Positions 42,868 through 58,286 of a DNA stretch of 64,000 bases are shown here, piece after piece. Position numbers and translations under genes: made by a program. Below the pieces are notes generated by a model. It ran no database searches and was not told the DNA's origin. It saw nothing but the letters and a program-made list of their open reading frames with translations. Source of the stretch: Candidatus Woesearchaeota archaeon (GTDB lineage Archaea > Nanobdellota > Nanobdellia > Woesearchaeales > ARS49); NCBI GenBank assembly GCA_038891615.1, contig JAWADY010000002.1, positions 64,994-128,993 on the forward strand, given 5' to 3'. Each line of letters starts with the position of its first letter. Within the stretch, counting starts at the first letter, position 1.

Positions 42868-43368
42868 ATGCCTGAAGAACTGCTGCCGCCGATAGGAACT
42901 AATATCGCGCCTGAACCCGCAAGCCAAGCTACAGAGCCATCCCAACAGCCAAAGCGCCTTTTCAAGTCAAAAATGCCAGAAACGACAGAGCTTTCATCGC
43001 TGCGTGAGGAACTTCTATCACTCAGCACCCGTCTAAGAGTGTCCGAAGAGCGCTATGTTGACTTTCGAAGAAAGCTTCAACTTCTAGAGCAAAACCTTCT
43101 TTCAAACCACAAACGGGTAATGGAAGAAATAAAGCTCCTGCTCTCAGAAACAACAGAGCTAAAAAAGAAGATTGATGAGATTGAAAACAAACTCCTTCTT
43201 ATTGTAAAGGAATTACAACTCACAGCAAAAAGAGAAGATGTGGAAGTAATGAAAAAGTATTTTGAACTTTGGAGCCCAGTTAGTTTTGCAACAATTTCTC
43301 AGGTTGAGAAAATGATTGCAGAAGCGCTACAGGAACGGCAAGGAGATGCCGAAGAAGAAAAGACATGA
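42868..43368 (+). CDS. Coiled-coil protein of 166 aa, divergently oriented from the pilus ATPase gene.
   Basis: Heptad-rich helical sequence (LSLSTRLRVSEERYVDFRRKLQLLEQNLL...). Confidence 0.4.
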   Translation: MPEELLPPIGTNIAPEPASQATEPSQQPKRLFKSKMPETTELSSLREELLSLSTRLRVSEERYVDFRRKLQLLEQNLLSNHKRVMEEIKLLLSETTELKKKIDEIENKLLLIVKELQLTAKREDVEVMKKYFELWSPVSFATISQVEKMIAEALQERQGDAEEEKT

Positions 43369-43470: not shown

Positions 43471-44184
43471 ATGCCTTTGTTCGGCCTTTTTGGTAAAAAA
43501 AAGGAAACCCCTCCTTCGCCTTTTGAAGGGCTTAAGCAAGAGCTTGCACCTCCCCTTGTTCAACGAGTCATTTCGCTTCAGCAACAAGGCCTTTCAAACA
43601 GCCAAATCATCGAGGCTCTCCAAAGAGAGGGCTTTGCTCTTGACAAAATTGTGGAAGCATTGAATCAAGCCGCTGCACCTCCGCCTGCTGGGCCCATTCC
43701 TACGGAGATGCCACAAGCCCCTCCACCAACTCCACCGTCAGAGCTTCCTCAAGCTCCTCAACCAGTGCCTGCACCGCCTGCAATGTATCCTGCTGAATAT
43801 CCTGAATATACCTATCCAGCTTACCCAGCCTATCCTGCTGAAGAAATACTTTCCCGAGAGAATGTTGAGGCAATTGCTGAGTCGATAGTTGAGGAGCGTT
43901 GGAAGGAGGCTACAAAAGAGCTTACAAAGTTGAGTGAATGGAAGGAAGCTTCAACAAGAAGACTTGACAAGCTTGAGCAGTCTCTTACGGACCTTAAAGC
44001 TGACATTGATAACCTTCACAAAGCACTCGTTGCAAAAATAAGCGAATACGACAAGAGTCTCATTGATGTTGGCGTAGAACTTAAGGCGATGGAAAAGGTT
44101 TTTCAGAAAGTGCTTCCAAGCCTAACAGAATCTGTTTCAGAACTATCACGAATTACGCAGCGGGTAAAAAAGGCAAAGAAGTAA
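43471..44184 (+). CDS. Protein of 237 aa with an N-terminal small helical domain, a Pro/Tyr-rich linker (YPAEYPEYTYPAYPAYPAEE) and a C-terminal coiled coil. It is possibly a paralogue of the preceding gene.
   Basis: The C-terminal heptad pattern is similar to the upstream ORF. Low-complexity PAPP linker. Confidence 0.4.
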   Translation: MPLFGLFGKKKETPPSPFEGLKQELAPPLVQRVISLQQQGLSNSQIIEALQREGFALDKIVEALNQAAAPPPAGPIPTEMPQAPPPTPPSELPQAPQPVPAPPAMYPAEYPEYTYPAYPAYPAEEILSRENVEAIAESIVEERWKEATKELTKLSEWKEASTRRLDKLEQSLTDLKADIDNLHKALVAKISEYDKSLIDVGVELKAMEKVFQKVLPSLTESVSELSRITQRVKKAKK

Positions 44185-44312: not shown

Positions 44313-45506
44313 ATGCTAATTGGTCTTGTTGGTAAGCCTTCTGCTGGCAAAAGCACTTTCTTTAAGGCACTAACTCTCGCGGAAGTTGCCATTGCACCGT
44401 ATCCTTTCACCACGATAAAACCAAATGAGGGCGTTGGTTTTGTTCGAGTTGATTGTGTTGAAAAGGAATTTGGGGTTGCCTGCAATCCTCGCGAGGGTTA
44501 TTGTAGCAATGGCATTCGTTTTGTTCCAATCAAATTGATGGATGTTGCCGGGCTTGTGCCAGGCGCGCATCTTGGGAAAGGACTTGGGCTTCAATTTCTT
44601 GACGACCTTAGGCAGGCAGAATGCCTTATACATATTGTTGATGCTTCTGGAAGCACGAATGAAAAAGGCGAGGTTGTTGCTCCAGGGAGCTACGACCCTT
44701 CATATGACATAAAATTTCTTGAGCATGAGCTTGACATGTGGTTTCTTGAAATCATAAAGCGTGGTTGGGAAAAGGTTGCCAAGCTATCTCAACAGACAAA
44801 AAAAGAAGTTTCTACAATTCTTGCAAGACAACTCTCTGGTTTGAATGTGAGTGAAGAGCTTGTCAGGGAACTTATATCAAAACTTGGTCTAGACCCTCTT
44901 TCTCCCATGTCCTGGAGCGAAGAAGTTCTTCACAGCCTTGCTATTGATCTTCGTAAAAGGACAAAACCCCTACTCATCGCAGCAAACAAGGCAGACATTC
45001 CTGAATCTGAAAAGAATATAAAGAGGATGGTTGAGCTCTTTCCAGATAAGGAAGTGGTTCCATGCTCTGCAGAAGCAGAGCTCGCGCTCAAAGAAGCAGC
45101 AAAGGCAGGTTTAATAAAATACTTGCCAGGCAGCAGTGATTTTGAAGTTGTTGGAAAGCTTAACGATAAACAGGCCGCTGCACTTGAATTTATTAGACAG
45201 AATGTGCTTAAAAAGTACGGAAGTACGGGTGTACAACAAACTCTTGATGATGCTGTATTCAAACTTCTTGGTTACATTGCAGTATTTCCTGGTGGTGTAA
45301 ACAAACTTGCAGACCAATTTGGGCGTGTTCTTCCGGATTGTTTTCTCATGCCAAAAAACAGCACAGCACTTGACTTTGCATTCAGAATTCATACAGATCT
45401 TGGAAAGGCGTTTGTAAGAGCAGTTGATGTGCGCTCGAAAAAAACAATTGGTAAAGACTATTTGCTAAAGCACAGGGATGTCATTGAGATTGTTGCAAAG
45501 GCATAG
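44313..45506 (+). CDS. Obg-like GTPase/ATPase of the YchF/Ygr210 family with a C-terminal TGS domain.
   Basis: G1 LVGKPSAGKSTFFKALT. YPFTTIKPNEGV. NKAD-like AANKAD. TGS-like C-terminus. Confidence 0.7.
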   Translation: MLIGLVGKPSAGKSTFFKALTLAEVAIAPYPFTTIKPNEGVGFVRVDCVEKEFGVACNPREGYCSNGIRFVPIKLMDVAGLVPGAHLGKGLGLQFLDDLRQAECLIHIVDASGSTNEKGEVVAPGSYDPSYDIKFLEHELDMWFLEIIKRGWEKVAKLSQQTKKEVSTILARQLSGLNVSEELVRELISKLGLDPLSPMSWSEEVLHSLAIDLRKRTKPLLIAANKADIPESEKNIKRMVELFPDKEVVPCSAEAELALKEAAKAGLIKYLPGSSDFEVVGKLNDKQAAALEFIRQNVLKKYGSTGVQQTLDDAVFKLLGYIAVFPGGVNKLADQFGRVLPDCFLMPKNSTALDFAFRIHTDLGKAFVRAVDVRSKKTIGKDYLLKHRDVIEIVAKA

Positions 45507-45550
45507 TTGCAAAACTTTCAGCCCCTTCAAAACGCATTTGTCAGACCCAT

Positions 45551-46705
45551 CTAAACTTTGAAAAGCCTTTCATGCAGCTTGCTAAAAGCTTTTAATCGCT
45601 CAAGAAATCGGTGCCATGCGCGCCTAGGAATACGCGCTCCCGCTGCCGGGATGTGGCCTCCAGCTGCTGCTTGAGCAATCCCTCGCACAGCCCGGTCAAG
45701 GAGTGCATTAACCTTTACTTTTTTGTCACTCCTTCTTCCGCTGACATCCCACCAGCCATCAGCACGCCGATAAACGATGAGCGTACGGTGAGGGTGCCTA
45801 AAGGCTGCTATTGTGCTAAGCGTAGAAGAGATTTTGAGTGGTGAACTTGCATCATAAAAAACTATTTCTCCAGGAGGAGTATTTCTCACAGCAATGTCAA
45901 ACCTTTTTAAGTGGCCCTTCAACTCATCATTCATTTTCTTTGTAATGAGTTTGAATGCGTTTATAATCTCCAAAGGGCTCTTTGCATCATAGACAACCTT
46001 CCAACATTTTTTTACACCATCTTTGCTGTACTTTATTGCTGATTGGATTGCATTGGCCGCCTTTCCAAAAGCACTCCTCCACACATCCTTTCCAATCCTA
46101 AGTCTTTTTTTGGCCGCAGCCTTTTGAACAAAGCCCTTCCAACAATTATAACCTGCATCCGCAACAATTCCTATTGCTGCAATCCAATCAAACGAAGAAA
46201 TGTCAGCAACGGTCATTCCAAAATCGTATGCAAGTTTTGAGCTGCAATAGCTCGCAGCCTCTTTTGTTGAGAAAAGCTGCGGTTTTATCAAAAGACCATT
46301 TTTAATTGTTTTTGAGTACAAAGGGTGATGGTCAAGGATAAGAAGCCTTGCAAAACTTGAGATGCTTTTTACGATATTCTTTAGTTGATCAAGCGCAAGG
46401 TCTGTTGTTATAACCATGCTAATCCTTGCTCTTTTTAGTTTTGAAATTGTTGCTTTGTTTGGTCTTCGTTCAGGTTCTGAAATAACAAGTTCTGGTGACC
46501 TTCCCCTCACCGCTTCAATGAGTTTCGAAATGATTACTGCAGAGCACAGCCCATCAGGGTCTGCATCATGAATTATTGCAACCCTTCTTCCTCGTGTTGA
46601 AGCAAGGAATCTTACAAAGCTACTCTCCAGCCTTTCACGAACCTTTTCAAGCGATTTATGCTTTCTTGTCATATCCTCTCTTGCGTTTGAACGCAAATAT
46701 GCCAA
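45551..46705 (-). CDS. DHH/DHHA1 family phosphoesterase (NrnA/RecJ-like nuclease).
   Basis: IIHDADPDGLCSA (DHH motif I), ILDHHP (DHH), GGGH-like AAGGHIPAAG (DHHA1). Confidence 0.7.
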   Translation of the reverse strand: MAYLRSNAREDMTRKHKSLEKVRERLESSFVRFLASTRGRRVAIIHDADPDGLCSAVIISKLIEAVRGRSPELVISEPERRPNKATISKLKRARISMVITTDLALDQLKNIVKSISSFARLLILDHHPLYSKTIKNGLLIKPQLFSTKEAASYCSSKLAYDFGMTVADISSFDWIAAIGIVADAGYNCWKGFVQKAAAKKRLRIGKDVWRSAFGKAANAIQSAIKYSKDGVKKCWKVVYDAKSPLEIINAFKLITKKMNDELKGHLKRFDIAVRNTPPGEIVFYDASSPLKISSTLSTIAAFRHPHRTLIVYRRADGWWDVSGRRSDKKVKVNALLDRAVRGIAQAAAGGHIPAAGARIPRRAWHRFLERLKAFSKLHERLFKV

Positions 46706-46736
46706 AATGACAGCTTGTCAACTCTTGGCAGTGCTT

Positions 46737-47123
46737 TCAAGAATCACTGCCTTTTTTTCTCATACGCTCAAAAGTCGCAGCGATATCAATTATGTACTTC
46801 CCATCAGCAACTTTAAATATCAATGGCTCATTTTTAAAAAGCCTTACGAGGTCTAGTTCGTACTTTCCTGGCTTCAGAACATTAATGCTCTCCAAGTCAA
46901 GCACAACTGGTTTTTCTGGCTCTTCAAGTCCTATAATTTTGAAGATGTCAGATTCGATTTCTTTCTTTTCCTTTTCTGAAAGAGGGCTCGCTGGCCCTTC
47001 TGGTTGCTTCAGCTTTTCTTTCTTTATGAAAAAGAAAAGCTTCCCACCACAGGAACAACCCTTTAGTATCGCAGAAGAGCCATCATCGTAGAACGTATTG
47101 CACCGTACGCATTGGTGTGGCAT
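46737..47123 (-). CDS. Zn-ribbon-containing small protein.
   Basis: N-terminal CVRCN...CSCGGK. Same strand as, and tightly linked to, the next two genes. Confidence 0.35.
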   Translation of the reverse strand: MPHQCVRCNTFYDDGSSAILKGCSCGGKLFFFIKKEKLKQPEGPASPLSEKEKKEIESDIFKIIGLEEPEKPVVLDLESINVLKPGKYELDLVRLFKNEPLIFKVADGKYIIDIAATFERMRKKGSDS

Positions 47124-47126
47124 TTG

Positions 47127-47507
47127 CTATCTTTTTTTCCTCTTTTCTTGTGTAAAAAGTTCAATTTTGTGAGGGTCTTTCTTTATCTTCTTGACTATGC
47201 TGGCTGGCCCGATTATGGTCATTCCCTGCCTGTTTCCCAAAAGAAAGCTAAGGACGTTTTCGCGGAATTTCTTAATTCCTGAGAAGTTGCCTTGTTGAGG
47301 ATTTATAACTGCAAGCTCTATCCCTTTGAAATCCTTATTTATCTCTTCCATTGTTGCTTTTATAAGTTCAGCCTCTTCGTCCTTCGATAATCTCCCCTGA
47401 AAAAGAACTATCTTGTCTTCTTTTGCGACATTTAACAACTTTCTTATTCTTCCAACAGAGCTAAGCTGTTCAAGCTCACTATATGGAATGAATTGCAGGG
47501 TCACCAT
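47127..47507 (-). CDS. Conserved hypothetical protein in an operon with a small GTPase (resembles the DUF2073-type partner in archaeal Zn-ribbon/GTPase gene triplets).
   Basis: Its start codon is 2 nt from the GTPase stop. No catalytic motif. Confidence 0.3.
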   Translation of the reverse strand: MVTLQFIPYSELEQLSSVGRIRKLLNVAKEDKIVLFQGRLSKDEEAELIKATMEEINKDFKGIELAVINPQQGNFSGIKKFRENVLSFLLGNRQGMTIIGPASIVKKIKKDPHKIELFTQEKRKKR

Positions 47508-47508
47508 C

Positions 47509-48147
47509 TTATTTTCTCAGAAGCTCGTATAATTTTTCATAAAACTCGTTAATGTTCTTGCCATATTTTGCAGATATGCCAATAACATCGTATTGAGGAA
47601 AGGCTGTCTGAACCCTTTTCAGCTTGGCACGCTTGAGGTCTATCTTGTTTGCAGCGATTAGCACAGGTATTTTTCGAGCAGCAAGGTTCCCAACTATTGT
47701 TATGTTAACTTGTGAATAAGGGTCCTGAGTTGCATCTAATACGAGTACAACCCCGTCAACATCATCCAGCCACTTTATTGCTTCTATCACTCCTTTTGTT
47801 GCTTCGCGCGCCCTGCGCTTCGCTTTTGATTCAGGCAGCCCACTTTTGATGAAATCCTCATAATCTATTCTTGTTGCAATCCCTGGCGTATCAACAAGAC
47901 TAAATTGCAGTTCCTTGCCCTTCTTTAGTTTTATTACAATTCGCTCTTTTACATTGACCTCTCTTGTTTCGTGCGGAACTGGACTGACCTTTCCCATTTC
48001 TTTGCCAATCCAGTCCAAGCATATCTTGTTCGCAAGAGTTGTTTTCCCTGAATTTGGAGGACCATAAAGGCCAAGTTTAAGGGACTGTCTTCTTTTGAAA
48101 AGCTCGCCAAAAAGACCTCCGAAAACGCTCTTCAACAGCTTTAACAT
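47509..48147 (-). CDS. Small Ras-like GTP-binding protein.
   Basis: G1 GPPNSGKTT, G3 VDTPGI, G4 ANKID. Length 212 aa. Confidence 0.7.
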   Translation of the reverse strand: MLKLLKSVFGGLFGELFKRRQSLKLGLYGPPNSGKTTLANKICLDWIGKEMGKVSPVPHETREVNVKERIVIKLKKGKELQFSLVDTPGIATRIDYEDFIKSGLPESKAKRRAREATKGVIEAIKWLDDVDGVVLVLDATQDPYSQVNITIVGNLAARKIPVLIAANKIDLKRAKLKRVQTAFPQYDVIGISAKYGKNINEFYEKLYELLRK

Positions 48148-48243
48148 CTCTGCACCGCTTTTGCAATAAACAAAATAGGTTTTTATTTAAAACTTTCTAA
48201 AGAGAAAAATAAAAACTCAAGGCAAGAGAAGAAGTCAAATGCT

Positions 48244-48477
48244 TTAGCGACCCCGCGCCATCTTTGCCCTTGAGATATCTCCCTTTTTGTCAATGAAATA
48301 AAGATAACCTGGCTCTTTTTTGACTCCAACTTTCGCGACAAGCTCAGGCTTTCCTCCACGCCCCTTCCTGCCCCGTGCCATCTTGACCCTACTGACATTT
48401 CCCTTTTTGTCAACAAAATAAAGATATCCTTCTGCTTTTTTGACACCAACTTTTGCAACCTTTTCAGCCATTTTCAA
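48244..48477 (-). CDS. Small basic protein of 77 aa composed of two tandem 35-aa repeats.
   Basis: VAKVGVKKAEGYLYFVDKKGNVSRVKMARGRKGRGGKPEL is followed by VAKVGVKKEPGYLYFIDKKGDISRAKMARGR. The underlying DNA is a tandem repeat of about 105 nt, and the alternative-frame ORF 48183-48458 is its shadow. Confidence 0.45.
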   Translation of the reverse strand: MKMAEKVAKVGVKKAEGYLYFVDKKGNVSRVKMARGRKGRGGKPELVAKVGVKKEPGYLYFIDKKGDISRAKMARGR

Positions 48478-48562
48478 CCCCCTTTAATTTTCTTTTCAAA
48501 TCGACGATAAAAGCGTCTTTGAAGCAAGAAACAGTTCTAGTTTATAAAGTTTGCGTCTTTCT

Positions 48563-48787
48563 TCATCCCTTACTTTTGCGTGCTTTCATTCGTGGTTTTA
48601 GGTGGGCTATTTTGTGCCTCTCTTTTCCAAGGTACCATACAGGTCTCAAAAGCTTCTGAAGTTTTGCAGCAGTTTCGAGAGATTCTGTATACTCTCTAAA
48701 TATTTTCTTTCTACTATGTGGTATAAGTGGTTCTATCTTTTTTGCTTCTGCAAGTGCCAACTCAACGATAGACCTCTTTTTTGCCAT
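48563..48787 (-). CDS. Small basic protein of 74 aa, possibly a nucleic-acid-binding or ribosomal-like protein.
   Basis: Lys/Arg-rich (MAKKRSIVELALAEAKK...KPRMKARKSKG). Intact ORF with a T-rich upstream region. Confidence 0.3.
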   Translation of the reverse strand: MAKKRSIVELALAEAKKIEPLIPHSRKKIFREYTESLETAAKLQKLLRPVWYLGKERHKIAHLKPRMKARKSKG

Positions 48788-48866
48788 TTCCTCAAATCTT
48801 AGCCTTGTATCTTTTGTATAAAAATGCTTCGGCGAAAGGCATTTATATCCTCCAGCCGTTCTTGAG

Positions 48867-50066
48867 GTGGGGAAAATGAAATTTGCACATCTTGCAGACT
48901 GTCATATCGGTGGATGGCGTGAGCCTGTTCTCCGTGAACTGAACAACAGAGCATTTTCAGAAGCTGTTGCGCGATGCCTTGCAGAAAAGGTCGACTTTGT
49001 ACTCATAGCAGGAGACCTTTTTAACACCTCACTGCCTGCACTTGATAGTCTTAGGAGCGCTGTTGCTGGCCTTCGCGAACTGAAGGAAGCTGGAATTCCA
49101 GTTTATGCAGTTCCTGGTAGCCATGACTATAGCCCAAGTGGCAGGACGATTGTTGATGTGCTTGAGAGTGCAGGGTTGCTTGTCAATGTTGTAAACGAAG
49201 AAGCAAATTTTGTCGTAGATAAAAAGACTGGAGCAAAGCTCATAGGACTTCCTGGTTGGAAGGGTGGGCTTGACCAATCACTCTTCTCTTCAATTGACAA
49301 AAGTGCACTTGAGGCTGAAAAAGGTTTCAAGATCTTCCTATTCCACACGACGGTGAAGGAGCTGATAACAAAAGATTTTGAAATGATTCCATCTGTGCCA
49401 GCTTCAGCTTTTCCAGAAGGGTTTGACTATTATGCAGGTGGTCACATTCACATTGTCAGCAGGCACAGGTTTGGGAAGGGGTTTATGGTCTATCCAGGGC
49501 CGCTCTTTCCGAACAACTTTTCAGAGCTTGAGAAGCTGGGAGCGGGAGGATTTTTCGTATATGAAGATGGCAAGCTTGAGCATGTAAGACTCGAGCTCTG
49601 TCCTGTTCGGCCTTTAGTCTTGGATTGCAATCACAAACGGCCAGCTGAGATTTGCCAGGAGATTGCACACAGGATAGACCAGCTTGAGCTTAAAGGGGCC
49701 TTGCTGCTTGTCAGGCTTTATGGAAGCCTGGCTGGGAAATCTACAGAGATTCCTTTTAACGAGTTGTTTGCACGCGCATACGAGAAGGGTGCACTCTTTG
49801 TTCTCAAGAATTCTCATCAGCTCATAAACGAAGAACTTGCAAAGACCGAAACTGTTTCGGGAACTGTTGAGGAAATAGAACAGAGTGTGATTGAAAGCTT
49901 TTCAGGAAAAGGCCCTTTTACAAAGGAAAAAGAACGCCAGCTTCTTGCCGCCATTATGCAGGTGCTTTCTGCTGAAAAAGCCGAGGGTGAAACTACTGTT
50001 GATTTTGAGACAAGACTGAAAAAAGCCGTTGCAGGGGTCTTAGGCATAACACAGGAGGCACACTAA
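48867..50066 (+). CDS. mre11: Mre11/SbcD-like calcineurin-fold DNA repair nuclease.
   Basis: Metallophosphoesterase motifs HLADCHIG, GDLFN, GSHDY, GGHIH. No rad50 gene is adjacent. Confidence 0.6.
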   Translation: MGKMKFAHLADCHIGGWREPVLRELNNRAFSEAVARCLAEKVDFVLIAGDLFNTSLPALDSLRSAVAGLRELKEAGIPVYAVPGSHDYSPSGRTIVDVLESAGLLVNVVNEEANFVVDKKTGAKLIGLPGWKGGLDQSLFSSIDKSALEAEKGFKIFLFHTTVKELITKDFEMIPSVPASAFPEGFDYYAGGHIHIVSRHRFGKGFMVYPGPLFPNNFSELEKLGAGGFFVYEDGKLEHVRLELCPVRPLVLDCNHKRPAEICQEIAHRIDQLELKGALLLVRLYGSLAGKSTEIPFNELFARAYEKGALFVLKNSHQLINEELAKTETVSGTVEEIEQSVIESFSGKGPFTKEKERQLLAAIMQVLSAEKAEGETTVDFETRLKKAVAGVLGITQEAH

Positions 50067-50074
50067 GAAAATTT

Positions 50075-51385
50075 CTATGGGCTTTTTCTAAGCATTGTTC
50101 GTGGAAAGGGTATTGCATCTTTTATGTTGTCAAGTCCACAAATCCACGATATGACGCGCTCGATGCCCATCCCAAATCCAGAATGTGGAACAGAGCCATA
50201 GCGTCTTGTGTCAAAATACCATTCGTAATGTTCTGGATGTTCGCCGCTCTTTTTTAGCGCTTCTTTCATTGCATTGATGTCAAGGTCTCGTTGCGAGCCT
50301 CCAATTATCTCGCCGTACCCTTCAGGCGCGAGCATGTCAAAACAGAGTGCCGTCTTAGGATCTCTTGGGTCTGCTGGCTTATAAAATGCCATTATCTCCT
50401 TTGGATAGTTCGTTACGATGAGAGGCCTGTCAAAATGCTTCATTATTTTGTTCTCTTCAATTGTCCTCAAGTCCTTGCCCCACTGCACTACCAATCCTTC
50501 TTTTTTCTTCAAAAGCTCAAGGACTTGTGTATATGTAAGCCTAGGAAAAGGTGTTTTTACCTTTTTGAGCTTCGACAGTTCTTGCCCAAGCTGTGTTAGT
50601 TCTGAGCTGTTTTCCTTTAACACAGCCTTTACAACGTGCTCAACGAGCTCTTCGGCTTGTTTAATAGCTCCGTCCAAGTCCTGCCACGCTGTTTCGACCT
50701 CTGCCATCCAGAACTCTGCAAGGTGTCTCGAGGTTTTGCTCCGTTCTGCTCTAAAGCATGGACTAATTGTGAATATCTTTTCAAGTCCAAAAATTCCTGC
50801 CTCTGCATAAAGCTGCCAACTTTGAGTAAGGTATGCAATGTCGTCAAAGTATTTTAGCTGGAAAAGGGTTGCTCCCCCTTCGCAAGCAACTGGGGTTATT
50901 ATAGGTGGAGACCATTCGTAGTAGCCTCGCTCATAGAAATAATCTCGTACCGCCTTGAGGATGGTTGAGCGAATCTTAAGGATGTTTGTTAGCTTTCTAC
51001 TTCTTAACCAAAGATGCCTCACATCGAGGAGAAACTCCTGACTAAGATCCTTTGCTATTGGGAATCTCTCTGCAATATGAACAATTTTCAGGTCTGAAAC
51101 TTTTAGCTCGTATCCTGTTGGAGCCCTTTCATCTTTTACAAGCTCGCCCTCAACAATAAGCGAGCTTTCCATTGTTACCTTTTCCGCATTACTGAATAAC
51201 TCCTTTGGCACATTTTCTTTCTTGACAACACATTGTATGATGTTGGAGCTATCTCTTAAAACAATAAACACTTTGTCCGCAAACTTCCTTTCGCGATAGC
51301 ACCAGCCTCTAAGCCTAACCTTTCCTTTACCTTTTTCAAGTGCTTCTTGTATCGAAATAATGCCGTCTTTTTCAGCTACTGCCAT
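50075..51385 (-). CDS. asnS: Asparaginyl-tRNA synthetase (class IIb).
   Basis: SPCFRAERSKTSRHLAEFWMAEVETAW, GGSQRD, YGSVPHSGFGMGIERV are AsnRS-type motif 2/3 variants. Length 436 aa. Confidence 0.75.
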   Translation of the reverse strand: MAVAEKDGIISIQEALEKGKGKVRLRGWCYRERKFADKVFIVLRDSSNIIQCVVKKENVPKELFSNAEKVTMESSLIVEGELVKDERAPTGYELKVSDLKIVHIAERFPIAKDLSQEFLLDVRHLWLRSRKLTNILKIRSTILKAVRDYFYERGYYEWSPPIITPVACEGGATLFQLKYFDDIAYLTQSWQLYAEAGIFGLEKIFTISPCFRAERSKTSRHLAEFWMAEVETAWQDLDGAIKQAEELVEHVVKAVLKENSSELTQLGQELSKLKKVKTPFPRLTYTQVLELLKKKEGLVVQWGKDLRTIEENKIMKHFDRPLIVTNYPKEIMAFYKPADPRDPKTALCFDMLAPEGYGEIIGGSQRDLDINAMKEALKKSGEHPEHYEWYFDTRRYGSVPHSGFGMGIERVISWICGLDNIKDAIPFPRTMLRKSP

Positions 51386-51431
51386 TTTTCCTTTAAATTA
51401 AAGAACTCTTTTAAAGTTTTCCAGTCGTTCG

Positions 51432-52739
51432 TCAGGGCACAACTCGTTCTGGGTCCCTTGGAAATAGCACTCCTTCTCGGATGTTTCCAAGCCCAAGTAT
51501 GTTTTTTACAAGTCTGTCAATGCCAAGCCCGAAACCGCCATGTGGAGGCATGCCATAGCGGAATGCTTCTAGATAAAATGCAAAATCCTTCGGGTCTAGC
51601 CCTTTACCTTTCATCTGCTCAACAAGCTGGATGTAGCGATGTTCGCGTTGCCCTCCTGAAGCAAGCTCCTCTCCACCATACTCGAAGTCAAAGCTCCGTG
51701 ACAGTCCATTCTCTGCCATTATGTAGAAAGGTTTTATCTTGAATGGAAACTTTGTGATAAAGTACGCCTTTGTGCCGTACCTTTTTTTCACAAGTTCTCC
51801 CAAAAGCTTTTCGTCTTCTGCCCCTATGTCCTCGTCTTCTTTTATCTTTGAGCCAGCTTCCTTGAGCATGTCCAAGGCTTCGCTGTACCTTATCCTTGGA
51901 AATGGAAGCTGAGGAGGCTCCAAGTGAATATCAAAAAGGCCCAGCTCACGCGCGAATTCAGATTTTATTTTTCCAATAACAAAAACAAACAACCTTTCAA
52001 GAAGTCTTAGCACATCCTCTTCATCTTTTATGAATGCCATTTCGAGGTCAAAATGCGTGAACTCTGTGAGATGTCTCGTTGTATGCGATTTTTCTGCCCT
52101 AAAGCTTGGCCCTATCTCAAAGACCTTGTCAAAGCCCGAAGCAAGCACAGCCTGTTTGTACAGCTGCTGGCTTTGACTCAGAAAAACTTTTTTGCCATAG
52201 TAATTTACTTGGAAAAGGGTTGCTCCTCCCTCTGCCCCTGCACTTATGAGTTTTGGCGTTTGTATTTCAATAAAACCCTCTGAGTTAAGGAAAGCGCGGA
52301 TTGCAGCATTTAGTCCTGAACGTATTTTAAAAATTGCCAGGTTTTTTCGGTTTCTTAGATCAAGTAGTCTGTTGTCAAGCCTTTTGTCAAGGCCAGTAGG
52401 AATCTTCCCGGAGAAGTCGATTGGAAGCACTGGTTCGCTTTTACTTATTACCTCAAACTTTTCAAGAACAAGCTCTTTTTCTCCAGATTTGAGCTTTGAC
52501 TCAGCCATTTTCCCCTCTGCAACGATTACAGATTCCTTTGGGATCTTTTCAAGCTCAGACATTTTTTCAAAATCTGGAAGAGCTGTTAGCTGAATCTCCC
52601 CTTCCCTATCACGGAGCCTGACAAAAGCAATCTTTCCAATGCGTTTTATGTCAGCCGCCCACCCTGCTACTACAACTCGTGTTCCAGCAGCCTTTTTCAG
52701 CGCCTCGCTTGAATAAATCCTTCTTGCTAGATCTATCAT
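51432..52739 (-). CDS. aspS: Aspartyl-tRNA synthetase (archaeal-type class IIb).
   Basis: SQSQQLYKQ, GPSFRAEKSHTTRHLTEFTHFDLEMAFI, GGQREHRY, PPHGGFGLGIDRL. Length 435 aa. Confidence 0.8.
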   Translation of the reverse strand: MIDLARRIYSSEALKKAAGTRVVVAGWAADIKRIGKIAFVRLRDREGEIQLTALPDFEKMSELEKIPKESVIVAEGKMAESKLKSGEKELVLEKFEVISKSEPVLPIDFSGKIPTGLDKRLDNRLLDLRNRKNLAIFKIRSGLNAAIRAFLNSEGFIEIQTPKLISAGAEGGATLFQVNYYGKKVFLSQSQQLYKQAVLASGFDKVFEIGPSFRAEKSHTTRHLTEFTHFDLEMAFIKDEEDVLRLLERLFVFVIGKIKSEFARELGLFDIHLEPPQLPFPRIRYSEALDMLKEAGSKIKEDEDIGAEDEKLLGELVKKRYGTKAYFITKFPFKIKPFYIMAENGLSRSFDFEYGGEELASGGQREHRYIQLVEQMKGKGLDPKDFAFYLEAFRYGMPPHGGFGLGIDRLVKNILGLGNIREGVLFPRDPERVVP

Positions 52740-53374
52740 TTTTTCCGTCCTCTGCTTCTGCCTTTGAGCCTGAGCTTCAATGCAAGGTCTTCAAGTTTTT
52801 CCAGCCCATATTTCAGGCTATCAAACTTTTTTCTTAAAGGTTGGTTTCTAAAATCAAATAGGGTCAGTTGTTCATGAATCCCTTCAACAAATGCCTTTAT
52901 CTCAAGCGCAGACCTTTCATTGCCTTTTATCACAGAATTTATGGCTTTTCGCACAAGCTCGCCCACCATATCACAAAGTCCTAGAAGATATATATCTATG
53001 TCAACGCCAAGTTCTTTGGGAGAGAAAAGTCGCTTCTCACTCGCCCAGCCATAGTAGCAGGAAGCCTCAACATACTCTTCCAGAGCCTCTGCATAAGCAC
53101 CAATCATTGCAAGATGTTTGTCACCCTTTACAAGGCTTTCTGCCTCTTTTATTCTGCTTTTTGCAACCCTTAGTGCAGCTGCTGCCGAAGCGAGGTCTTC
53201 TCTATGAAGTGCATAAATTGCCTTTTTGCTTTCCTTTAGAATATCTCTTGATTTCTTTATAAGCTCTTCGCGGGCATAATCAAAAGCCTCTAGCTTCTGC
53301 CTCATGAGCTCAAAAGTCTTTTTGTCAATCATTACTGTAGTTTGTGAGCGCAGCCCTTTTAAATCTATTGCCAC
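52736..53374 (-). CDS. Translin-family protein (all-alpha nucleic-acid-binding/RNase-like).
   Basis: AYAEALEEYVEA and DIYLLGLCDMVGELVRKA resemble the conserved translin/TRAX EE and YL-GL-D--GEL-R blocks. Overlaps the aspS start by 4 nt. Confidence 0.5.
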   Translation of the reverse strand: MAIDLKGLRSQTTVMIDKKTFELMRQKLEAFDYAREELIKKSRDILKESKKAIYALHREDLASAAAALRVAKSRIKEAESLVKGDKHLAMIGAYAEALEEYVEASCYYGWASEKRLFSPKELGVDIDIYLLGLCDMVGELVRKAINSVIKGNERSALEIKAFVEGIHEQLTLFDFRNQPLRKKFDSLKYGLEKLEDLALKLRLKGRSRGRKK

Positions 53375-53451
53375 GCACTGCTCTGAAACAAAGAAAAGGT
53401 TTATATACTCTCATTCTTCAAAAAAGCAAAAAAGAGAGGTTAAAAAACCTG

Positions 53452-54003
53452 ATGGCCGCGACTGTTCTTGGAAATGTCATTGAGTTTTTTAATAGAATAG
53501 GAATTTACGATGTCGTGCTACCCTTTCTTCTCGTTTTCACAATTGTTTTTGCAATCTTTGAGAGAACAAAGGTTCTTGGAACAGAAAAGATTGATGGGGA
53601 AGTTGTTACAAAAAAGAACCTTAATGCAATGGCTGCCTTTGTAATTGCATTTTTTGTAGTAGCTTCAGGCCAGGTTGTGGAGACAATCACAAAGGTTTCT
53701 GCAAACATGGTTGTTCTTCTCTTTCTTGTGATATTCTTCCTAATGCTTGTTGGCACACTTTACAAAGAAGGAGAATTTGTTGAAAAGGGACTTGAAGGCT
53801 GGCCAAGAAATGTCTTTATTATAGTTCTTACCCTTGGAATCATTCTTGTTTTCCTAGACGGAATAAAAGCAGCTGACGGTCGGAGTTGGTTACAGGTTGC
53901 AACAGATTACCTTCAGCTGAACTGGTCCTCACCTGCTGTTGCCTCAGTAGTGCTCATCCTTCTCGTCATATTCATAATAAACTGGCTAACAAAGGGTAAG
54001 TAG
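53452..54003 (+). CDS. Integral membrane protein, paralogue 1 of 3 (start trimmed to the internal Met that follows a GAGG site).
   Basis: IGIYDVVLPFLLVFTIVFAIFERTKVLG N-terminal helix and about 4 TM segments. Paralogous to the next two genes. Confidence 0.5.
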   Translation: MAATVLGNVIEFFNRIGIYDVVLPFLLVFTIVFAIFERTKVLGTEKIDGEVVTKKNLNAMAAFVIAFFVVASGQVVETITKVSANMVVLLFLVIFFLMLVGTLYKEGEFVEKGLEGWPRNVFIIVLTLGIILVFLDGIKAADGRSWLQVATDYLQLNWSSPAVASVVLILLVIFIINWLTKGK

Positions 54004-54579
54004 GTGATGCAAATGATTTTTCGGCTTCAATTTGGGCCTTATGGCATAGGTTTTAGGGACCTTTTTTATAGACTGCAGGTTTTGGGCGTGTTTGATGTTC
54101 TGATACCTTTTGTTCTAATCTTCACCATTCTTTATGCAGTCCTTCAGAAAGTAGGAGTGTTCAAAGAGAAGAAGTTCAATATTCTCATCTCGCTTGCAAT
54201 AGCTCTTCTCGTAGTTGTCCCTCATGTTGTTGGAGGCTATCCTGCTGGCTTTGATGTAGTTGAAATCATAAACCGCTCGCTCCCGCAAATAGCCTTCCTC
54301 CTCATAGCTTTTGTTCTTTTTCTCATAATGGTTGGGCTTGTCTGGAAGCCACAGAAGGGAACGGAACTTGTGTTTCAAGGGGCTCTTGTTCCAATCATTG
54401 TTGCGCTTATTCTCTTTTTCATCTTTAGCAGTGCGATTTATCAGCAAGCCATTCCGAACTGGCTTTGGTGGATTCTTGATCCAACCTTGCAGATGTTCGT
54501 TGTGATTTTGCTGATATTCGGGCTTGTTGTGTGGTTTGTGACAAGCGGAGCAAAGGAAGAAAAAGAGGGAAAAGATTAA
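54004..54579 (+). CDS. Integral membrane protein, paralogue 2 of 3.
   Basis: LGVFDVLIPFVLIFTILYAVLQKVGVFKEKK. Same topology and length (191 aa). Starts 1 nt after the previous stop. Confidence 0.5.
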   Translation: MMQMIFRLQFGPYGIGFRDLFYRLQVLGVFDVLIPFVLIFTILYAVLQKVGVFKEKKFNILISLAIALLVVVPHVVGGYPAGFDVVEIINRSLPQIAFLLIAFVLFLIMVGLVWKPQKGTELVFQGALVPIIVALILFFIFSSAIYQQAIPNWLWWILDPTLQMFVVILLIFGLVVWFVTSGAKEEKEGKD

Positions 54580-54594
54580 AAGAGCTAGTGAAAT

Positions 54595-55158
54595 ATGGCA
54601 ACCCTGCTTGACCTAGGCCTTGTGAGAACTTTTGACGCCCTGTTTCCTTTCCTTTTTGTCTTTGTTGTTGTTTATGGCGTCCTAAGCTACACAAAACTTC
54701 TTGGCGAGAACAAAAGTGTACATGCAATAATTGCATTTATACTTGCCATAGCCGCCCTATTCTCCCGCATTGCTCTAAAGACAATAACCCTCATGGCCCC
54801 ATGGTTCGTTATTCTTTTTGTTTTCGCGATATTTGCAATAATGACTTATCAGCTCTTTGGTGTTAAAGAGGAAGAGATATCTGGACTTTGGAAAAAGTGG
54901 ACAGCTGGTGGTAGCACCATCTTCTATTGGTTATTGGCACTCATACTTATGATAGGACTTGGCTCGTTGTTCACTGTCCTGCGCGAAGAAAGGGCACCAC
55001 CTTTTTTCATCCAAAATGCCACTGTTACTCCAGGCATTCCAGAAGCCCGGATTAGCTTTTGGTCAACAGTATTCCATCCAAAAGTTCTTGGAGCCGCACT
55101 TCTTTTCTTGATAGCATTGTTCGCCATAAAGAGCCTCACAGAGCTTCCAAAGAAATAA
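54595..55158 (+). CDS. Integral membrane protein, paralogue 3 of 3.
   Basis: VRTFDALFPFLFVFVVVYGVLSYTKLLGENK. Length 187 aa. Confidence 0.5.
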   Translation: MATLLDLGLVRTFDALFPFLFVFVVVYGVLSYTKLLGENKSVHAIIAFILAIAALFSRIALKTITLMAPWFVILFVFAIFAIMTYQLFGVKEEEISGLWKKWTAGGSTIFYWLLALILMIGLGSLFTVLREERAPPFFIQNATVTPGIPEARISFWSTVFHPKVLGAALLFLIALFAIKSLTELPKK

Positions 55159-55167
55159 CCTTAAATT

Positions 55168-55779
55168 GTGAAAATGGTAGAAATAATAGATCGGTATTCT
55201 CGTTTTGGCAAAAATCTCTTAAAAATCACAAGTTTTGTATTGGGCTACAAGGATGTTTTTTCTTTAGAAAAACTAATCACTCTTATTCACGAGTGGCTCG
55301 TTGAGGAAGGCTATGCAACACGGGATGATGAGAAGTTTGGTGAGGTGTTTTATTTGCAAAAGGACAACCCTGTTGCAGGCAATGAGTACTGGATTCGTTG
55401 GAGGCTTGAGAAAACCCCCTTTCAAACAAAGCTTTGGAAATATCTTCTTGATATCGATATACACGTTCTTGGATTAAAAAAAGTTGAGCTTGTTGCCGGA
55501 GGGAAAAAGCTTGAAGCAGATAAGGGAAAGGTTGAGATTGCTGCAGACTTTGGCTTACTTCTTGACCCACAAAATTTGCTTGAGGCTCCGGTTATTAAAC
55601 CATTTAAAATGCTTGTGCTAAAGGGCTTTCTTAAGGCGCAGTTTTCAAAGCACAAAGAAGCAGTCTTCACTGATGCTCAAAGGCTTCAAGATATGTTAAA
55701 ATCCTATCTCCGTCTTGAGACCTACTTGACTGAAAAAGGGCTTCCGGAATTCCTTGGCAAAAGGCCGGAGGCAAGATAA
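55168..55779 (+). CDS. Soluble hypothetical protein, paralogue A of 3.
   Basis: Shares the blocks HEWLVEEGY...EKFGE and VELVAGGKKLEADKGKVEIAADFGLLLD with the next two ORFs. Confidence 0.45.
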   Translation: MKMVEIIDRYSRFGKNLLKITSFVLGYKDVFSLEKLITLIHEWLVEEGYATRDDEKFGEVFYLQKDNPVAGNEYWIRWRLEKTPFQTKLWKYLLDIDIHVLGLKKVELVAGGKKLEADKGKVEIAADFGLLLDPQNLLEAPVIKPFKMLVLKGFLKAQFSKHKEAVFTDAQRLQDMLKSYLRLETYLTEKGLPEFLGKRPEAR

Positions 55780-56280
55780 ATGGTAGTGAAGATAGACATA
55801 CCAGTTTCAATTATACGCTATGCTGGGCTTTTTCAAAAGGAAAAACTGCTTAGAACAGTTCGTGGCTGGCTTCTTTCAGAGCGCTATCTCTTTAGTGAGC
55901 CAAAGCATAAGTACAGCAGCTCTCCAACTGGTGCAACATTAGAGGTGCGGTTTGAAGGCGATAGAAAGGTAACAAGCTATGTGCGCTTCAAAATTGTTGT
56001 AGATATTCTGATTAATGAAATGAAGGATGTACAAGTTGTCAAGGATGGCATTCAAACAGTCCTTCAAGAAGGAAAAATACTTATCGAAACAAAGGGCACT
56101 TTGGAATTGGATTGGCAAAATCGTTTTGGAGGTTCAAAATTTCTTCAGGGCTTACACGACTTTTATCTAAAGTACATAATAAAGAAAAAAATTGATGAAG
56201 TATGGTGGGGAGCTCTTTATTCCAAAATATTTAAATTGAACTCAGTCATTAGAGAAGCAATAGGCTTTGAAACAGTCTGA
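55780..56280 (+). CDS. Soluble hypothetical protein, paralogue B of 3.
   Basis: RGWLLSERY...KHKY and VVKDGIQTVLQEGKILIETKGTLELDWQNRF. Starts 1 nt after the previous stop. Confidence 0.45.
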   Translation: MVVKIDIPVSIIRYAGLFQKEKLLRTVRGWLLSERYLFSEPKHKYSSSPTGATLEVRFEGDRKVTSYVRFKIVVDILINEMKDVQVVKDGIQTVLQEGKILIETKGTLELDWQNRFGGSKFLQGLHDFYLKYIIKKKIDEVWWGALYSKIFKLNSVIREAIGFETV

Positions 56281-56806
56281 GGTCGCTCTGATGCCAGAAC
56301 GCGAGACAATTGTTGACAAAGAACGGTTAGAGTATGAAGGACCATTTGAGCTTTCTGCTTTTTATCAGCTTCTCCAGAGCACAATTGCTGAGCTTGGTTA
56401 TGGCGTAAGGGAAAGAAAGCATTCCGAAGCGGTTTCGAAGGAAGGAAAGCTAATCTATCTTGAGCTAGAGTGTAGAAAGGTGCTATCAGAGGACTATGCT
56501 AGAGCTCTTATTCTGCTAAATGTTCAGCTTATAAATGTCAAAGACATCGTTGTTGAGGGCAAAAAATATCAGACAGGAAAGATTAGCATTGTTCTTGATG
56601 GCATCCTTGAAACAGACTATGAAGGAAGATGGGAGGAAAAGCCGCTTCTTCTCTTTCTCAGGACTCTTTATGACAAATTTATTTTTAAAACAATAACTGG
56701 TGGATACGATAGAATAATCCGAGAAGATGCAAATAGGCTGAAAGACATTGTCAGTGCATTCTTTAACATTTCTGCCTTTAGGGTGCCTCAACGTGCCTCT
56801 GCCTAA
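56267..56806 (+). CDS. Soluble hypothetical protein, paralogue C of 3. The true start may be the ATG at 56291.
   Basis: IAELGYGVRERKHSE and VVEGKKYQTGKISIVLDGILETDYEGRWE. Confidence 0.45.
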   Translation: MKQSEVALMPERETIVDKERLEYEGPFELSAFYQLLQSTIAELGYGVRERKHSEAVSKEGKLIYLELECRKVLSEDYARALILLNVQLINVKDIVVEGKKYQTGKISIVLDGILETDYEGRWEEKPLLLFLRTLYDKFIFKTITGGYDRIIREDANRLKDIVSAFFNISAFRVPQRASA

Positions 56807-56875: not shown

Positions 56876-56959
56876 GCCTCCGTAGCTCAGTAGTGGAGCG
56901 ACTGCCTTGTATCTGTGCAAGAAAGCAGTAGGTCAGGGGTGCGAATCCCCTCGGAGGCT
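56876..56959 (+). tRNA. tRNA-Thr (anticodon TGT) with a 12-nt intron at the canonical 37/38 position.
   Basis: Acceptor GCCTCCG/CGGAGGC, D-arm GCTC-AGTAGTG-GAGC, and anticodon stem ACTGC/GCAGT enclosing 19 nt (loop CTTGTA + intron tctgtgcaagaa + A). Intron CAAG pairs with exon CTTG to give a bulge-helix-bulge-like structure. T-arm AGGGG-TGCGAAT-CCCCT. Confidence 0.7.
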
Positions 56960-57058
56960 TCATTCTTATTTAACCAGCCGCAGGAAAACTTCATATTCTC
57001 TTTAAGCTTTGCTAAGCTTTCAAAATGTTTATATAACAAAAGAGGTGCTCAATATTTT

Positions 57059-57712
57059 ATGGAAACAAGCAAATGCGGCAGGTTTATTGTTCTTGATGGC
57101 ATTGATGGTTCTGGAAAGAGCATGCAAGCAAAGGCACTCGCTTGTTACCTTTTTGACAAATCAAAAGAGTACAATGTCCTTCTCACGCGCGAGCCTTTTA
57201 ATTCAGACTATTGTGCTGAAATTCGTAGGCTACTCAAGGAAGGAAAAACTCCTTATGAAAACGCCGAGAAGCTCACAGAACTTTTTGTTGCTGACAGAAA
57301 ACTTCATGCTGGCCTGATAGCAAAGTGCCTTTCTGCAGGCGTTCATGTTGTGTCGGACAGGTATAAGTATTCAACCTTTGCGTACCAACAAGCGCAAGGC
57401 TTAAACCTAGACCGCCTGATTGAAATGCACGCTTCTTTGCTTGTTCCTGACATTGCAATAATTATTGATATTCCTGCCAAAGTTGCACTCGAGCGCATCA
57501 AGGACAGCCCTAAAAGGTCATATTACGAGGTTTTTGAAGCTCTTTCCTTTCAAGAGGTCCTACGGCAGAACTTTCTATCACTTCGCAAGAGCTTACCAAA
57601 TGAGCGGATTGTGATTATTGATGGAAACAAGCCTGCAGTTGAGGTCTTTGAATCGATAAGGAAGGAAGTGGACAAGCTGTATGGCTCTTGTGGTCAAAAG
57701 AAACTTTTATAA
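57059..57712 (+). CDS. tmk: Thymidylate kinase.
   Basis: GRFIVLDGIDGSGKSMQ P-loop. LLTREPF. DRY-like DRYKYS. The start is set at the ATG at 57059, because the ORF-track start at 56915 would overlap the tRNA-Thr gene. A TATA-like tttatata lies about 25 nt upstream. Confidence 0.75.
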   Translation: METSKCGRFIVLDGIDGSGKSMQAKALACYLFDKSKEYNVLLTREPFNSDYCAEIRRLLKEGKTPYENAEKLTELFVADRKLHAGLIAKCLSAGVHVVSDRYKYSTFAYQQAQGLNLDRLIEMHASLLVPDIAIIIDIPAKVALERIKDSPKRSYYEVFEALSFQEVLRQNFLSLRKSLPNERIVIIDGNKPAVEVFESIRKEVDKLYGSCGQKKLL

Positions 57713-57791: not shown

Positions 57792-58286
57792 TTGGTTGAG
57801 GTGATTGTGATGGAAATAAAAGAAGCCTATGAACGCTTGCGAAAACGTTATCCTGAACTCCCTCCATTCCAACAGCTTGATTTTGAATTTGAGCTTTCAA
57901 CGATTGAAAAGGAGAGATTTGAAGAGCCTTTCATTCTTAGGCTTATCTGCAGTAGGATAAGCGAAAAAGTAAGCCCGCTGAAGGATTTTTTTGATCAGCT
58001 CCTTCAGCCAGAAGCTACATCCTTTAGCAGCATCTACGAATCACGCTGTTTCACAGAAGCTGAGAAACATGAAATTCTCGATGTCTACAAAAAATATATG
58101 CTTTTTGTCAGAGCACTTGATGAAGCCCTTCTTATGCTCGATGATAAAAAATATGTGGAAGTCGTTAAACTCTCCTTGTCAGAGTGGCCTGATGTGAGAA
58201 AAGCAGTCCTACCTTTTCTGAAGAAGCTTCGTGAATGCTGGAAGACGCCGTTTGAAAAGAAAAGAATTCTTGAATATCTTGGTTAA
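57792..58286 (+). CDS. Hypothetical protein, 164 aa.
   Basis: Intact ORF between tmk and adk. No recognisable motif. Confidence 0.3.
   Translation: MVEVIVMEIKEAYERLRKRYPELPPFQQLDFEFELSTIEKERFEEPFILRLICSRISEKVSPLKDFFDQLLQPEATSFSSIYESRCFTEAEKHEILDVYKKYMLFVRALDEALLMLDDKKYVEVVKLSLSEWPDVRKAVLPFLKKLRECWKTPFEKKRILEYLG

Follow-up and report, generated by a model that had tools for sequence, protein, structure and literature searches.

A tandem array of three membrane and three soluble paralogues in a Woesearchaeota genome: two conserved gene triplets probably juxtaposed by a local rearrangement

Introduction

A survey of archaeal type IV filament systems recorded ATPases of nanoarchaea for which no cognate pilins could be identified, and in some of the systems it noted accessory proteins of the coiled-coil type (Makarova et al. 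2016, PMC4858521). Here we analyse six consecutive genes, g1 to g6, in a 64,000-nt stretch of contig JAWADY010000002.1 (assembly GCA_038891615.1, positions 64,994 to 128,993 of the forward strand; hereafter the window, in whose numbering positions are given) from a metagenome-assembled genome (MAG) of a very small, symbiotic Woesearchaeota (DPANN) archaeon. The first three genes encode paralogous membrane proteins and the last three paralogous soluble proteins, and an earlier note made from the sequence had taken this 3+3 array as a sign of a modular system, for instance of cognate membrane–soluble pairs. We favour a different reading: the array consists of two unrelated, independently conserved triplets, each probably a hetero-oligomer, which were juxtaposed by a local rearrangement and are not matched pairs. 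We hold this statement, taken as a whole, to be moderately probable.

The Woesearchaeota, DPANN archaea of small genome size, are abundant, and to our knowledge their attachment to hosts and their uptake of host material are essentially unknown. The likeness of the present locus to archaeal type IV filament systems lies in the usual partners of g1–g3 in related genomes, an ATPase resembling afGspE, CpaF and FlaI and a large polytopic membrane protein. In contrast, g1–g3 themselves are not pilins, T2SSF/FlaJ platforms or A24 peptidases, a triplet of paralogues with five transmembrane (TM) helices belongs to no described type IV pilus system, and in the window this triplet lies ~9 kb from the ATPase cluster. 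The soluble proteins recall the START/Bet v1/PYR-PYL (SRPBCC) proteins in their size of ~160–190 aa and in their succession of strand(s), helix, antiparallel sheet and long C-terminal helix; however, their models have six strands, two of them very long, whereas the helix-grip fold is a wrapped seven-strand sheet. With volvatoxin A2, the Cyt toxins and the Eag chaperones (SciW, DUF1795) they have an alpha/beta sandwich architecture in common. Finally, both triplets resemble the crenarchaeal PCNA1–3 in that three divergent paralogues are kept 1:1:1, as expected of an obligate hetero-oligomer. This is an analogy and not homology, as the NCBIfam PCNA match is negligible (E 0.07) and size and topology differ.

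Results and Discussion

The array comprises two unrelated sets of three paralogues

The six genes are co-directional on the + strand (Table 1) and separated by gaps of 0–15 nt, which bears out the 3+3 array and the close spacing that the earlier note had described. Two of the lengths given there were off, g1 having 183 aa and g5 166 aa. The start of g6 had rightly been called uncertain: the ATG at 56291 is the NCBI call, and an alternative TTG start at 56267 would overlap g5 by 14 nt. Paralogy was assessed by pairwise BLAST and then by profile–profile comparison of the ortholog alignments with hhalign. BLAST gave 27–46 bits among the membrane pairs and 30–39 bits among the soluble pairs. With hhalign, the probabilities were 99.8% for g1–g2 (E 1e-29), 98.7% for g1–g3 and 98.2% for g2–g3, and 99.4% for both g4–g5 and g4–g6 and 99.7% for g5–g6, while the negative control g1–g4 gave 0.1%. 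The members of each set are paralogues of one another, and the two sets are unrelated.

Kyte–Doolittle hydropathy showed five hydrophobic helices in each of g1, g2 and g3 and none in g4–g6. Only four TM helices had been counted per membrane protein; the AlphaFold2 (AF2) model of g1 also has five (residues ~18–39, 55–71, 73–103, 117–137 and 161–181), TM2 and TM3 being nearly contiguous, together with a beta-hairpin loop at residues 44–53. The membrane motif that had been noticed is real and takes the form (Y/F)D(V/A)x(L/I/F)PF; across 50 members D20, P24, F25 and F29 are invariant, so that TM1 carries an invariant D20-x3-P24-F25. One soluble motif, G-K...G-x-L-E-x-D-Y/W...R-W/F, also proved genuine, with D111 invariant in 61 sequences. 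The other, E-GY...KH, stood in part, its 'KH' being missing from g4.

The view that the array lacks an annotated counterpart was upheld, as Pfam, NCBIfam, PADLOC, PDB profiles and Foldseek (PDB and BFVD) returned nothing convincing for either family. Pfam and NCBIfam searches with all six proteins gave nothing above noise, and Pfam searches with 50 membrane members, 61 soluble members and the consensus sequences of the hidden Markov models (HMMs) gave scattered weak matches only; those to Gtr1_RagA (5/61, best E 1.5e-4), DUF7269, EamA and Acyl_transf_3 were judged to be noise or composition. Sequence-profile searches of the PDB found nothing for either family, the sole PADLOC match was to a 2TM effector model (E 0.13), and we found no description of either family in the literature. 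Identical proteins in NCBI are all called 'hypothetical protein' and come from Candidatus Woesearchaeota MAGs, on contigs of up to 349 kb.

Each family is large. More than 1563 clusters and 542 matching stretches in GTDB species-representative genomes were found for the membrane family, and 1931 representative clusters (E ≤ 1e-3) for the soluble one, so that two large protein families without a Pfam, NCBIfam or PDB counterpart are now defined. Labelled records of both come mostly from Woesearchaeota, Nanoarchaeia or Nanoarchaeota MAGs and, evident mislabels aside, both families are confined to MAGs labelled Woesearchaeota or Nanoarchaeia and to similar ones of the DPANN type. A large number of the remaining records bear the title 'uncultured Methanosarcinales archaeon' (the commonest), 'Candidatus Binatia bacterium' or 'Gammaproteobacteria bacterium' (e.g. 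loci L014, L015, L018, L010 and L084); the likely reason is a wrong taxonomy label or a mis-binned contig in the public MAG submission.

The two triplets have different neighbours in related genomes

We compared 80 loci anchored on relatives of g1, taken from GTDB species genomes and annotated with the window proteins and the family HMMs. The gene downstream of g3 was counted in the 58 of these loci that have at least 2.5 kb after g3. Synteny of the soluble trio was read from loci anchored on g5 (g5 orthologues alone served as query) and from two long soluble-anchored contigs, L114 and L115, which were scanned 10 kb to either side; the gene upstream of the soluble trio was counted in the 12 soluble-anchored loci with upstream sequence.

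Orthologues of g1 are 47–64% identical over the 80 loci, and g1, g2 and g3 each have a clear 1:1 orthologue in nearly every related locus. The recurrent order is Mre11 (+), AsnRS (-), AspRS (-), Translin (-), then g1, g2, occasionally a second g2-type gene, and g3 (all +), followed by the coiled-coil genes cc2 and cc1 and by the ATPase and the polytopic membrane protein (both +). We observed cc2 within 2.5 kb of g3 in 55/58 loci (95%), and g4 followed g3 in none of the 58. The ATPase lay at most 8 kb from g3 in 32/41 loci, and Translin stood upstream of g1 in just 40/59 (68%). Thus the g3–cc2 junction is the most persistent one. It is kept even where cc2 is flipped to the + strand (L007, L010, L013, L014, L022 and L028).

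The soluble triplet keeps other company. The order g4–g5–g6 is retained in most loci that hold all three orthologues, an exception being L004, where g4 is inverted and lies downstream of g6. A gene for a YchF/OLA1-like GTPase is typically divergent from g4, with a spacer of 77–146 nt in 6/12 loci and of 725 nt in two more, and the distant L115 shows the same divergent YchF–g4 arrangement. Downstream of g6 there often follow x164 (a small gene described below), Adk and TruD; across loci the neighbours of g4–g6 are YchF, Adk, TruD or g1–g3. Among the 12 soluble-anchored loci, g3 precedes g4 only in L090, on contig Ga0315289_10000002, and a soluble-family gene is present in only one of the 80 g1-anchored loci (L067). 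L115 holds all three soluble genes and L114 only g5- and g6-like ones; in both, the 10 kb to each side of these genes hold no gene of the membrane family.

These counts, with the trios separated in more than 95% of loci, speak against cognate membrane–soluble pairs, and so do the copy numbers, which had seemed to match. Four membrane paralogues occur in 10/73 loci, the fourth being an extra tandem copy of the g2 type (L023, L028, L050, L051, L054, L055, L061, L062, L070 and L072), so the membrane triplet is not fixed in number. No locus has more than three soluble paralogues, which together with the ten duplications argues against fixed 1:1 pairing. That the two families might never co-occur elsewhere is not strictly the case: the 3+3 order recurs, but only in L006, L090 and the divergent L067.

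Reciprocal junctions point to an inversion

The window lacks both of the common junctions, g3|cc2 and YchF|g4, and carries instead the reciprocal ones, cc2|YchF at 44184/44313 and g3|g4 at 55158/55168. A reciprocal pair of this kind is what one inversion of the YchF-to-g3 segment would leave behind. In the window the order is platform-, ATPase-, cc1+, cc2+ | YchF+, DHH-, ..., Translin-, g1+, g2+, g3+ | g4+, g5+, g6+. In L046, on contig WJJS01000033.1, it is YchF+, DHH-, ..., Mre11+, AsnRS-, Translin-, g1+, g2+, g3+ | cc2-, cc1-, ATPase+, platform+, which is the predicted uninverted state. We therefore propose that two old operons were joined as follows. The first, g1–g2–g3, encodes 5-TM proteins that would form a hetero-oligomeric membrane complex. 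The second, g4–g5–g6, encodes cytoplasmic alpha/beta proteins and would originally have shared a short divergent region with the gene for the YchF-like GTPase. The ~10.8-kb inversion would have put g4–g6 right behind g3 and removed the promoter region of g4, so that the g1 promoter would now drive all six genes.

The arrangement of the transcription signals is consistent with this proposal. The TATA-like box TTTATATA upstream of g1 is likely to be the promoter of a g1–g6 transcription unit in the window lineage. The gap between g3 and g4 measures merely 9–15 nt and holds no AT-rich spacer; cc2 and YchF are separated by 128 nt of AT-rich, promoter-like sequence. Since there is a TATA box before g1, no room for a promoter before g4 and a tRNA gene after g6, the six genes are probably co-transcribed on a single transcript, which would be a derived operon fusion. 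The tRNA gene marks the 3' end of the six-gene unit. It was missed by ARAGORN. Its anticodon arm has 19 nt instead of the expected 7, and we read the gene as a putative tRNA-Thr (UGU) in which 12 intron-like nucleotides follow position 37. A mechanically called open reading frame (ORF) of 265 aa at 56915–57712 overlaps the tRNA gene, and so the thymidylate kinase (Tmk) that it encodes probably starts at the ATG at 57060, which is preceded by a TATA-like box at about 57029.

The fused order persisted in the clade formed by the window, L006 and L090, the orthologues of the latter two being 51–64% identical to those of the window. L067 is different: its g5 and g6 are 28% identical to those of the window, its upstream genes are others and its g3–g4 gap measures 150 nt. 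In a neighbour-joining tree of concatenated g1, g2 and g3, L067 was placed with the window clade in 15% and with the L007 clade in 6% of bootstrap replicates.

Could both trios nevertheless form one six-subunit membrane complex, in which the alpha/beta proteins dock, perhaps in cognate pairs, on the 5-TM proteins? The six-gene operon of the window would then reveal a link that gene-order drift has masked elsewhere. The equal copy number of three and three, the taxon labels that the families share and the very tight spacing in the window, which suggests co-translation, fit such a complex. It would also account for the 3+3 order of two backgrounds that are divergent, L067 and the clade of the window, L006 and L090, and for L046, where YchF, the usual neighbour of g4, lies just ~10 kb from g1. 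However, the trios are apart in 55/58 g1-anchored and 11/12 soluble-anchored loci, the surroundings of the soluble genes in L114 and L115 and the ten loci with a fourth membrane paralogue are as described above, and no fusion proteins occur among the top 150 representatives. We regard a six-subunit complex as rather unlikely and retain the reading of two independent triplets. The case also shows that a single inversion can create a striking 3+3 pattern, and that comparative synteny is needed before a modular system is read from one.

The membrane triplet and the ATPase cluster

The AF2 monomer model of g1 was mediocre (predicted local distance difference test score (pLDDT) 77, predicted TM-score (pTM) 0.48) and had no match in the PDB by Foldseek. 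A mediocre model would be expected if the helices pack against partner subunits. From the 1:1:1 orthology, the tight spacing and this poorly packed monomer we infer a membrane hetero-oligomer.

What kind of machine might such a complex serve? Its persistent neighbours are cc2/cc1 and the ATPase/platform pair. The ATPase matched the NCBIfam TadA and FlaI models at E 1e-31, both below cut-off, and its best PDB matches were afGspE (2oap), CpaF and FlaI. In the window the platform–ATPase–cc1–cc2 module sits ~9 kb upstream of g1–g3. In related genomes the triplet nearly always stands beside a Tad/FlaI-like ATPase cluster without known pilins or accessory membrane parts, and on the strength of this very persistent adjacency we tentatively propose, as a possibility that we hold to be less than even, that g1–g3 act as an accessory membrane module of a type-IV-filament-like machine. 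If this were true, they would add a new class of components to the type IV filament systems of archaea and provide a handle on the DPANN cell surface. The most defensible classification from the sequences at hand is that neither family is to be filed under a known family, and that the system would be a known kind of machine with new accessory components.

The established components of such machines were considered for g1–g3 and rejected. They do not resemble type IV pilins or archaellins, as five helices run along their whole length and the N-terminus is not signal-peptide-like, a class III signal peptide being absent. Nor do they resemble T2SSF/FlaJ/TadC platforms: no T2SSF domain (PF00482) was detected at E up to 5 in the proteins, the 50 members or the consensus, and hhalign of g1–g3 against the neighbouring 729-aa membrane protein gave a probability of at most 0.5%. 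A prepilin peptidase of the A24 family (5-TM PibD/FlaK type) had been considered owing to the Asp in TM1; there is, however, a single invariant Asp (D20), no GxGD motif and no Peptidase_A24 match. By hhalign, both families are unrelated to the alignments of the ATPase, the platform, cc1, cc2 and x164.

The buried, conserved Asp of TM1 could equally point to an ion-coupled or transport role. In a further reading, g1–g3 might be a stand-alone transporter or channel for small molecules or ions, the adjacency to the ATPase being inherited synteny. Besides the acidic residue, this would agree with weak and inconsistent matches to EamA, DctQ/DctM and MFS, with housekeeping flanks conserved by descent and with the mostly convergent orientation of g1–g3 and cc2/cc1. 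However, the matches are all far below cut-off and look driven by hydrophobic composition, and the g3–cc2 adjacency exceeds that of Translin and g1 (95% versus 68%) and survives the strand flip of cc2. We consider a stand-alone transporter unlikely.

Several points nevertheless weigh against our reading of two independent triplets, of which the first would be tied to an ATPase machine. The hetero-oligomeric complexes of both trios are putative. The L046 locus ends at YchF, and the g4–g6 side of the ancestral contiguity lies beyond it. The 3+3 order of L067 implies that the juxtaposition may be older or recurrent, hinting at a functional link between the trios. The 709–729-aa 'platform' has no detectable T2SSF/FlaJ domain. 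The usual convergence of g1–g3 with cc2/cc1 implies separate transcripts, and the 80 g1-anchored loci, being the closest relatives of g1, are phylogenetically non-independent. Moreover, the whole region is syntenic together with unrelated housekeeping genes (Mre11, AsnRS, AspRS and Translin), and therefore the link between g1–g3 and the ATPase could be one of inherited gene order and not of function; gene order that is kept in small DPANN genomes may reflect descent instead of function.

Some further features of the ATPase cluster were observed. The ATPase carries an N-terminal extension of ~370 aa. In the N-terminal domain of cc2, the helical repeat 'G-L/Y-S-x-x-Q-I-x-x-A-L' occurs twice, and an acidic linker comes after it. 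Elsewhere, the ATPase is preceded by a small gene of the ribbon–helix–helix type (L008 10756–10920, L009 9764–9913); no counterpart of at least 30 aa was found in the window. In L001, tandem genes (766–1212 and 1357–1806) encode ~148-aa proteins with a pilin-type N-terminal hydrophobic helix (class III signal-peptide-like). They are encoded away from the ATPase system and are possible candidate pilins for it.

The soluble triplet: fold and possible role

The AF2 model of g5, computed from a 61-sequence alignment, was confident (pLDDT 89, pTM 0.82). It consists of beta(3-6), beta(10-18), alpha(20-33), beta(42-48), beta(51-63), beta(68-88), beta(91-110), alpha(120-133) and alpha(135-161), that is, beta-beta-alpha-beta4-alpha-alpha with two strands of ~20 residues. 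In the PDB, the lowest Foldseek E (3e-4) was to proteins of the START/PYL/Bet v1 type, yet the TM-scores were merely 0.20–0.29. The best geometric match was volvatoxin A2 (TM-score 0.42, probability 1.0), and SciW/Eag chaperones reached TM-scores of 0.27–0.30 (probability 0.9). The search against BFVD gave none at E ≤ 1e-3. For the soluble triplet, therefore, the structure model is confident but nothing in the PDB matches it closely, and the predicted fold is describable only as a loosely helix-grip-like alpha/beta sandwich whose beta-hairpin is unusually long. Longin/roadblock and PCNA-like folds were looked for as well, and none was among the top 50 Foldseek matches.

Conserved positions in the 61 soluble sequences are mainly Gly, aromatic residues, Glu/Asp and one Arg. 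No His, Cys or Ser is conserved among them, and Cys is wholly absent from g4 and g5. These two proteins are basic (isoelectric point about 9), and g6 is not. Conservation without residues of the catalytic type suggests a binding or scaffold protein rather than an enzyme. With low confidence, we therefore picture g4–g6 as a non-enzymatic cytoplasmic hetero-oligomer that would serve in binding or as a scaffold and would be expressed in a manner coupled to the YchF-like GTPase.

The Foldseek matches could also be taken at face value. In a lipid-auxotrophic DPANN cell, g4–g6 might be START/Bet v1-like (helix-grip) carriers for hydrophobic ligands and g1–g3 a membrane scramblase or importer. The lowest E falls on START/PYL/Bet v1-type proteins (probability up to 0.96), and other matches bind TM helices or lipids (SciW, Cyt toxins, volvatoxin). 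On the membrane side, g1 has a weak MprF-like match in NCBIfam (E 7e-4, far below cut-off), and a single JGI annotation is also MprF-like. However, the low START TM-scores come with a root-mean-square deviation of 14–18 A, the strand count differs (beta-beta-alpha-beta4-alpha-alpha versus beta-alpha-alpha-beta6-alpha), and the two trios are usually unlinked. Moreover, no START, polyketide-cyclase or Bet v1 match was found in Pfam or NCBIfam with the three proteins, the 61 members or the consensus, so that sequence-profile similarity to these proteins is absent. We regard this reading as highly improbable. An extended version would place both trios in a single Woesearchaeales-specific apparatus together with the ATPase and the coiled-coil proteins, with a hetero-trimeric 5-TM core (g1–g3) and a hetero-trimeric helix-grip-like cytoplasmic carrier (g4–g6). 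It would move hydrophobic cargo such as host lipids across the cell membrane of a symbiont unable to make its own lipids, and the fused operon of the window would be the clue to the link. This seems equally far from likely.

The tandem paralogue arrays and the presence of SciW, an Eag chaperone, among the weak Foldseek matches might suggest a toxin/immunity, polymorphic-effector or anti-phage cassette with secretion chaperones; toxin/immunity and secretion-chaperone sets were among the options named in the earlier note. Several observations disfavour this. PADLOC gave no match, no effector-like or mobile-element genes lie nearby, and the GC content equals that of the flanks. The genes are stable 1:1:1 orthologues, mostly with one copy per subfamily per locus, in hundreds of genomes and in a fixed housekeeping context. 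Volvatoxin A2, the Cyt toxins and Eag proteins match below the same-fold level, without sequence similarity and without a toxin or type VI secretion context. An assignment of g4–g6 to the Eag/DUF1795 chaperones was likewise rejected, given their TM-scores to SciW, the lack of a DUF1795 Pfam match and the lack of an effector neighbour. We consider a cassette of this kind extremely unlikely, and the reading of two independent triplets is the one that we retain.

Other features of the region

Table 1. Positions of the array and of other features in the window
Feature	Position	Strand	Description
platform (presumed)	38265-40454	-	polytopic membrane protein, 729 aa; constant partner of the ATPase
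Tad/FlaI-like secretion ATPase	40483-42780	-	765 aa; T2SSE domain at residues 373-609, Pfam E 1.5e-12
cc1	42868-43368	+	coiled-coil protein, usual partner of cc2
cc2	43471-44184	+	coiled-coil protein with small N-terminal helical domain; usual immediate neighbour of g3 elsewhere
YchF/OLA1-like (YGR210-type) GTPase	44313-45506	+	usual divergent neighbour of g4 elsewhere
inferred inverted segment, YchF to g3	44313-55158		~10.8 kb; ends are lineage-specific junctions
DHH protein	45551-46705	-
OapC (PF09845) and OapB (PF09846)	46737-48147	-	origin-associated
91-aa ORF	48183-48458	-	two tandem repeats of ~40 aa
class II Asp/Asn-type aminoacyl-tRNA synthetases	50075-52739	-	tandem pair, 436 and 435 aa
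TATA-like box TTTATATA	53400-53407	+	archaeal type, ~45 nt upstream of g1 ATG
g1	53452-54003	+	183 aa, 5-TM; most conserved of the membrane triplet
g2	54004-54579	+	191 aa from GTG 54004 (NCBI start 54013, 188 aa); 5-TM paralogue of g1
g3	54595-55158	+	187 aa, 5-TM paralogue, third of the membrane triplet
g4	55168-55779	+	soluble; 203 aa from GTG 55168 or 201 aa from ATG 55174
g5	55780-56280	+	166 aa, soluble paralogue
g6	56291-56806	+	171 aa, soluble paralogue; ATG start is the NCBI call
tRNA	56876-56959	+	70 nt after the g6 stop; Rfam 57.7 bits
x164	57792-58286	+	all-helical, ~155-164 aa, no family match

The order g6–x164–Adk–TruD recurs in L093, L100, L105, L108 and L113, and elsewhere x164 may belong to the operon of the soluble trio. 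In the window, the tRNA gene and Tmk stand between g6 and x164.

GGDEF-domain proteins, which are rare in archaea, were seen beside the YchF-like GTPase and a DHH/DHHA1 phosphoesterase in L001 (1885–2892), L004 (7528–8511) and L115 (5656–6978). The window has the DHH protein, without a GGDEF gene at the corresponding position.

In most related genomes, the tandem synthetase genes are found upstream of g1 in a conserved block with Translin and Mre11. OapC and OapB adjoin a 212-aa small GTPase, and a chromosomal replication origin may lie close to them; no inverted repeats of the origin recognition box type were found in 48100–48900. Within the 91-aa ORF, the DNA copies of the repeat are 102 nt long, lie 120 nt apart and are 76% identical, and each repeat bears K-K-x-x-G-Y-L-Y-F-x-D-K-K-G.

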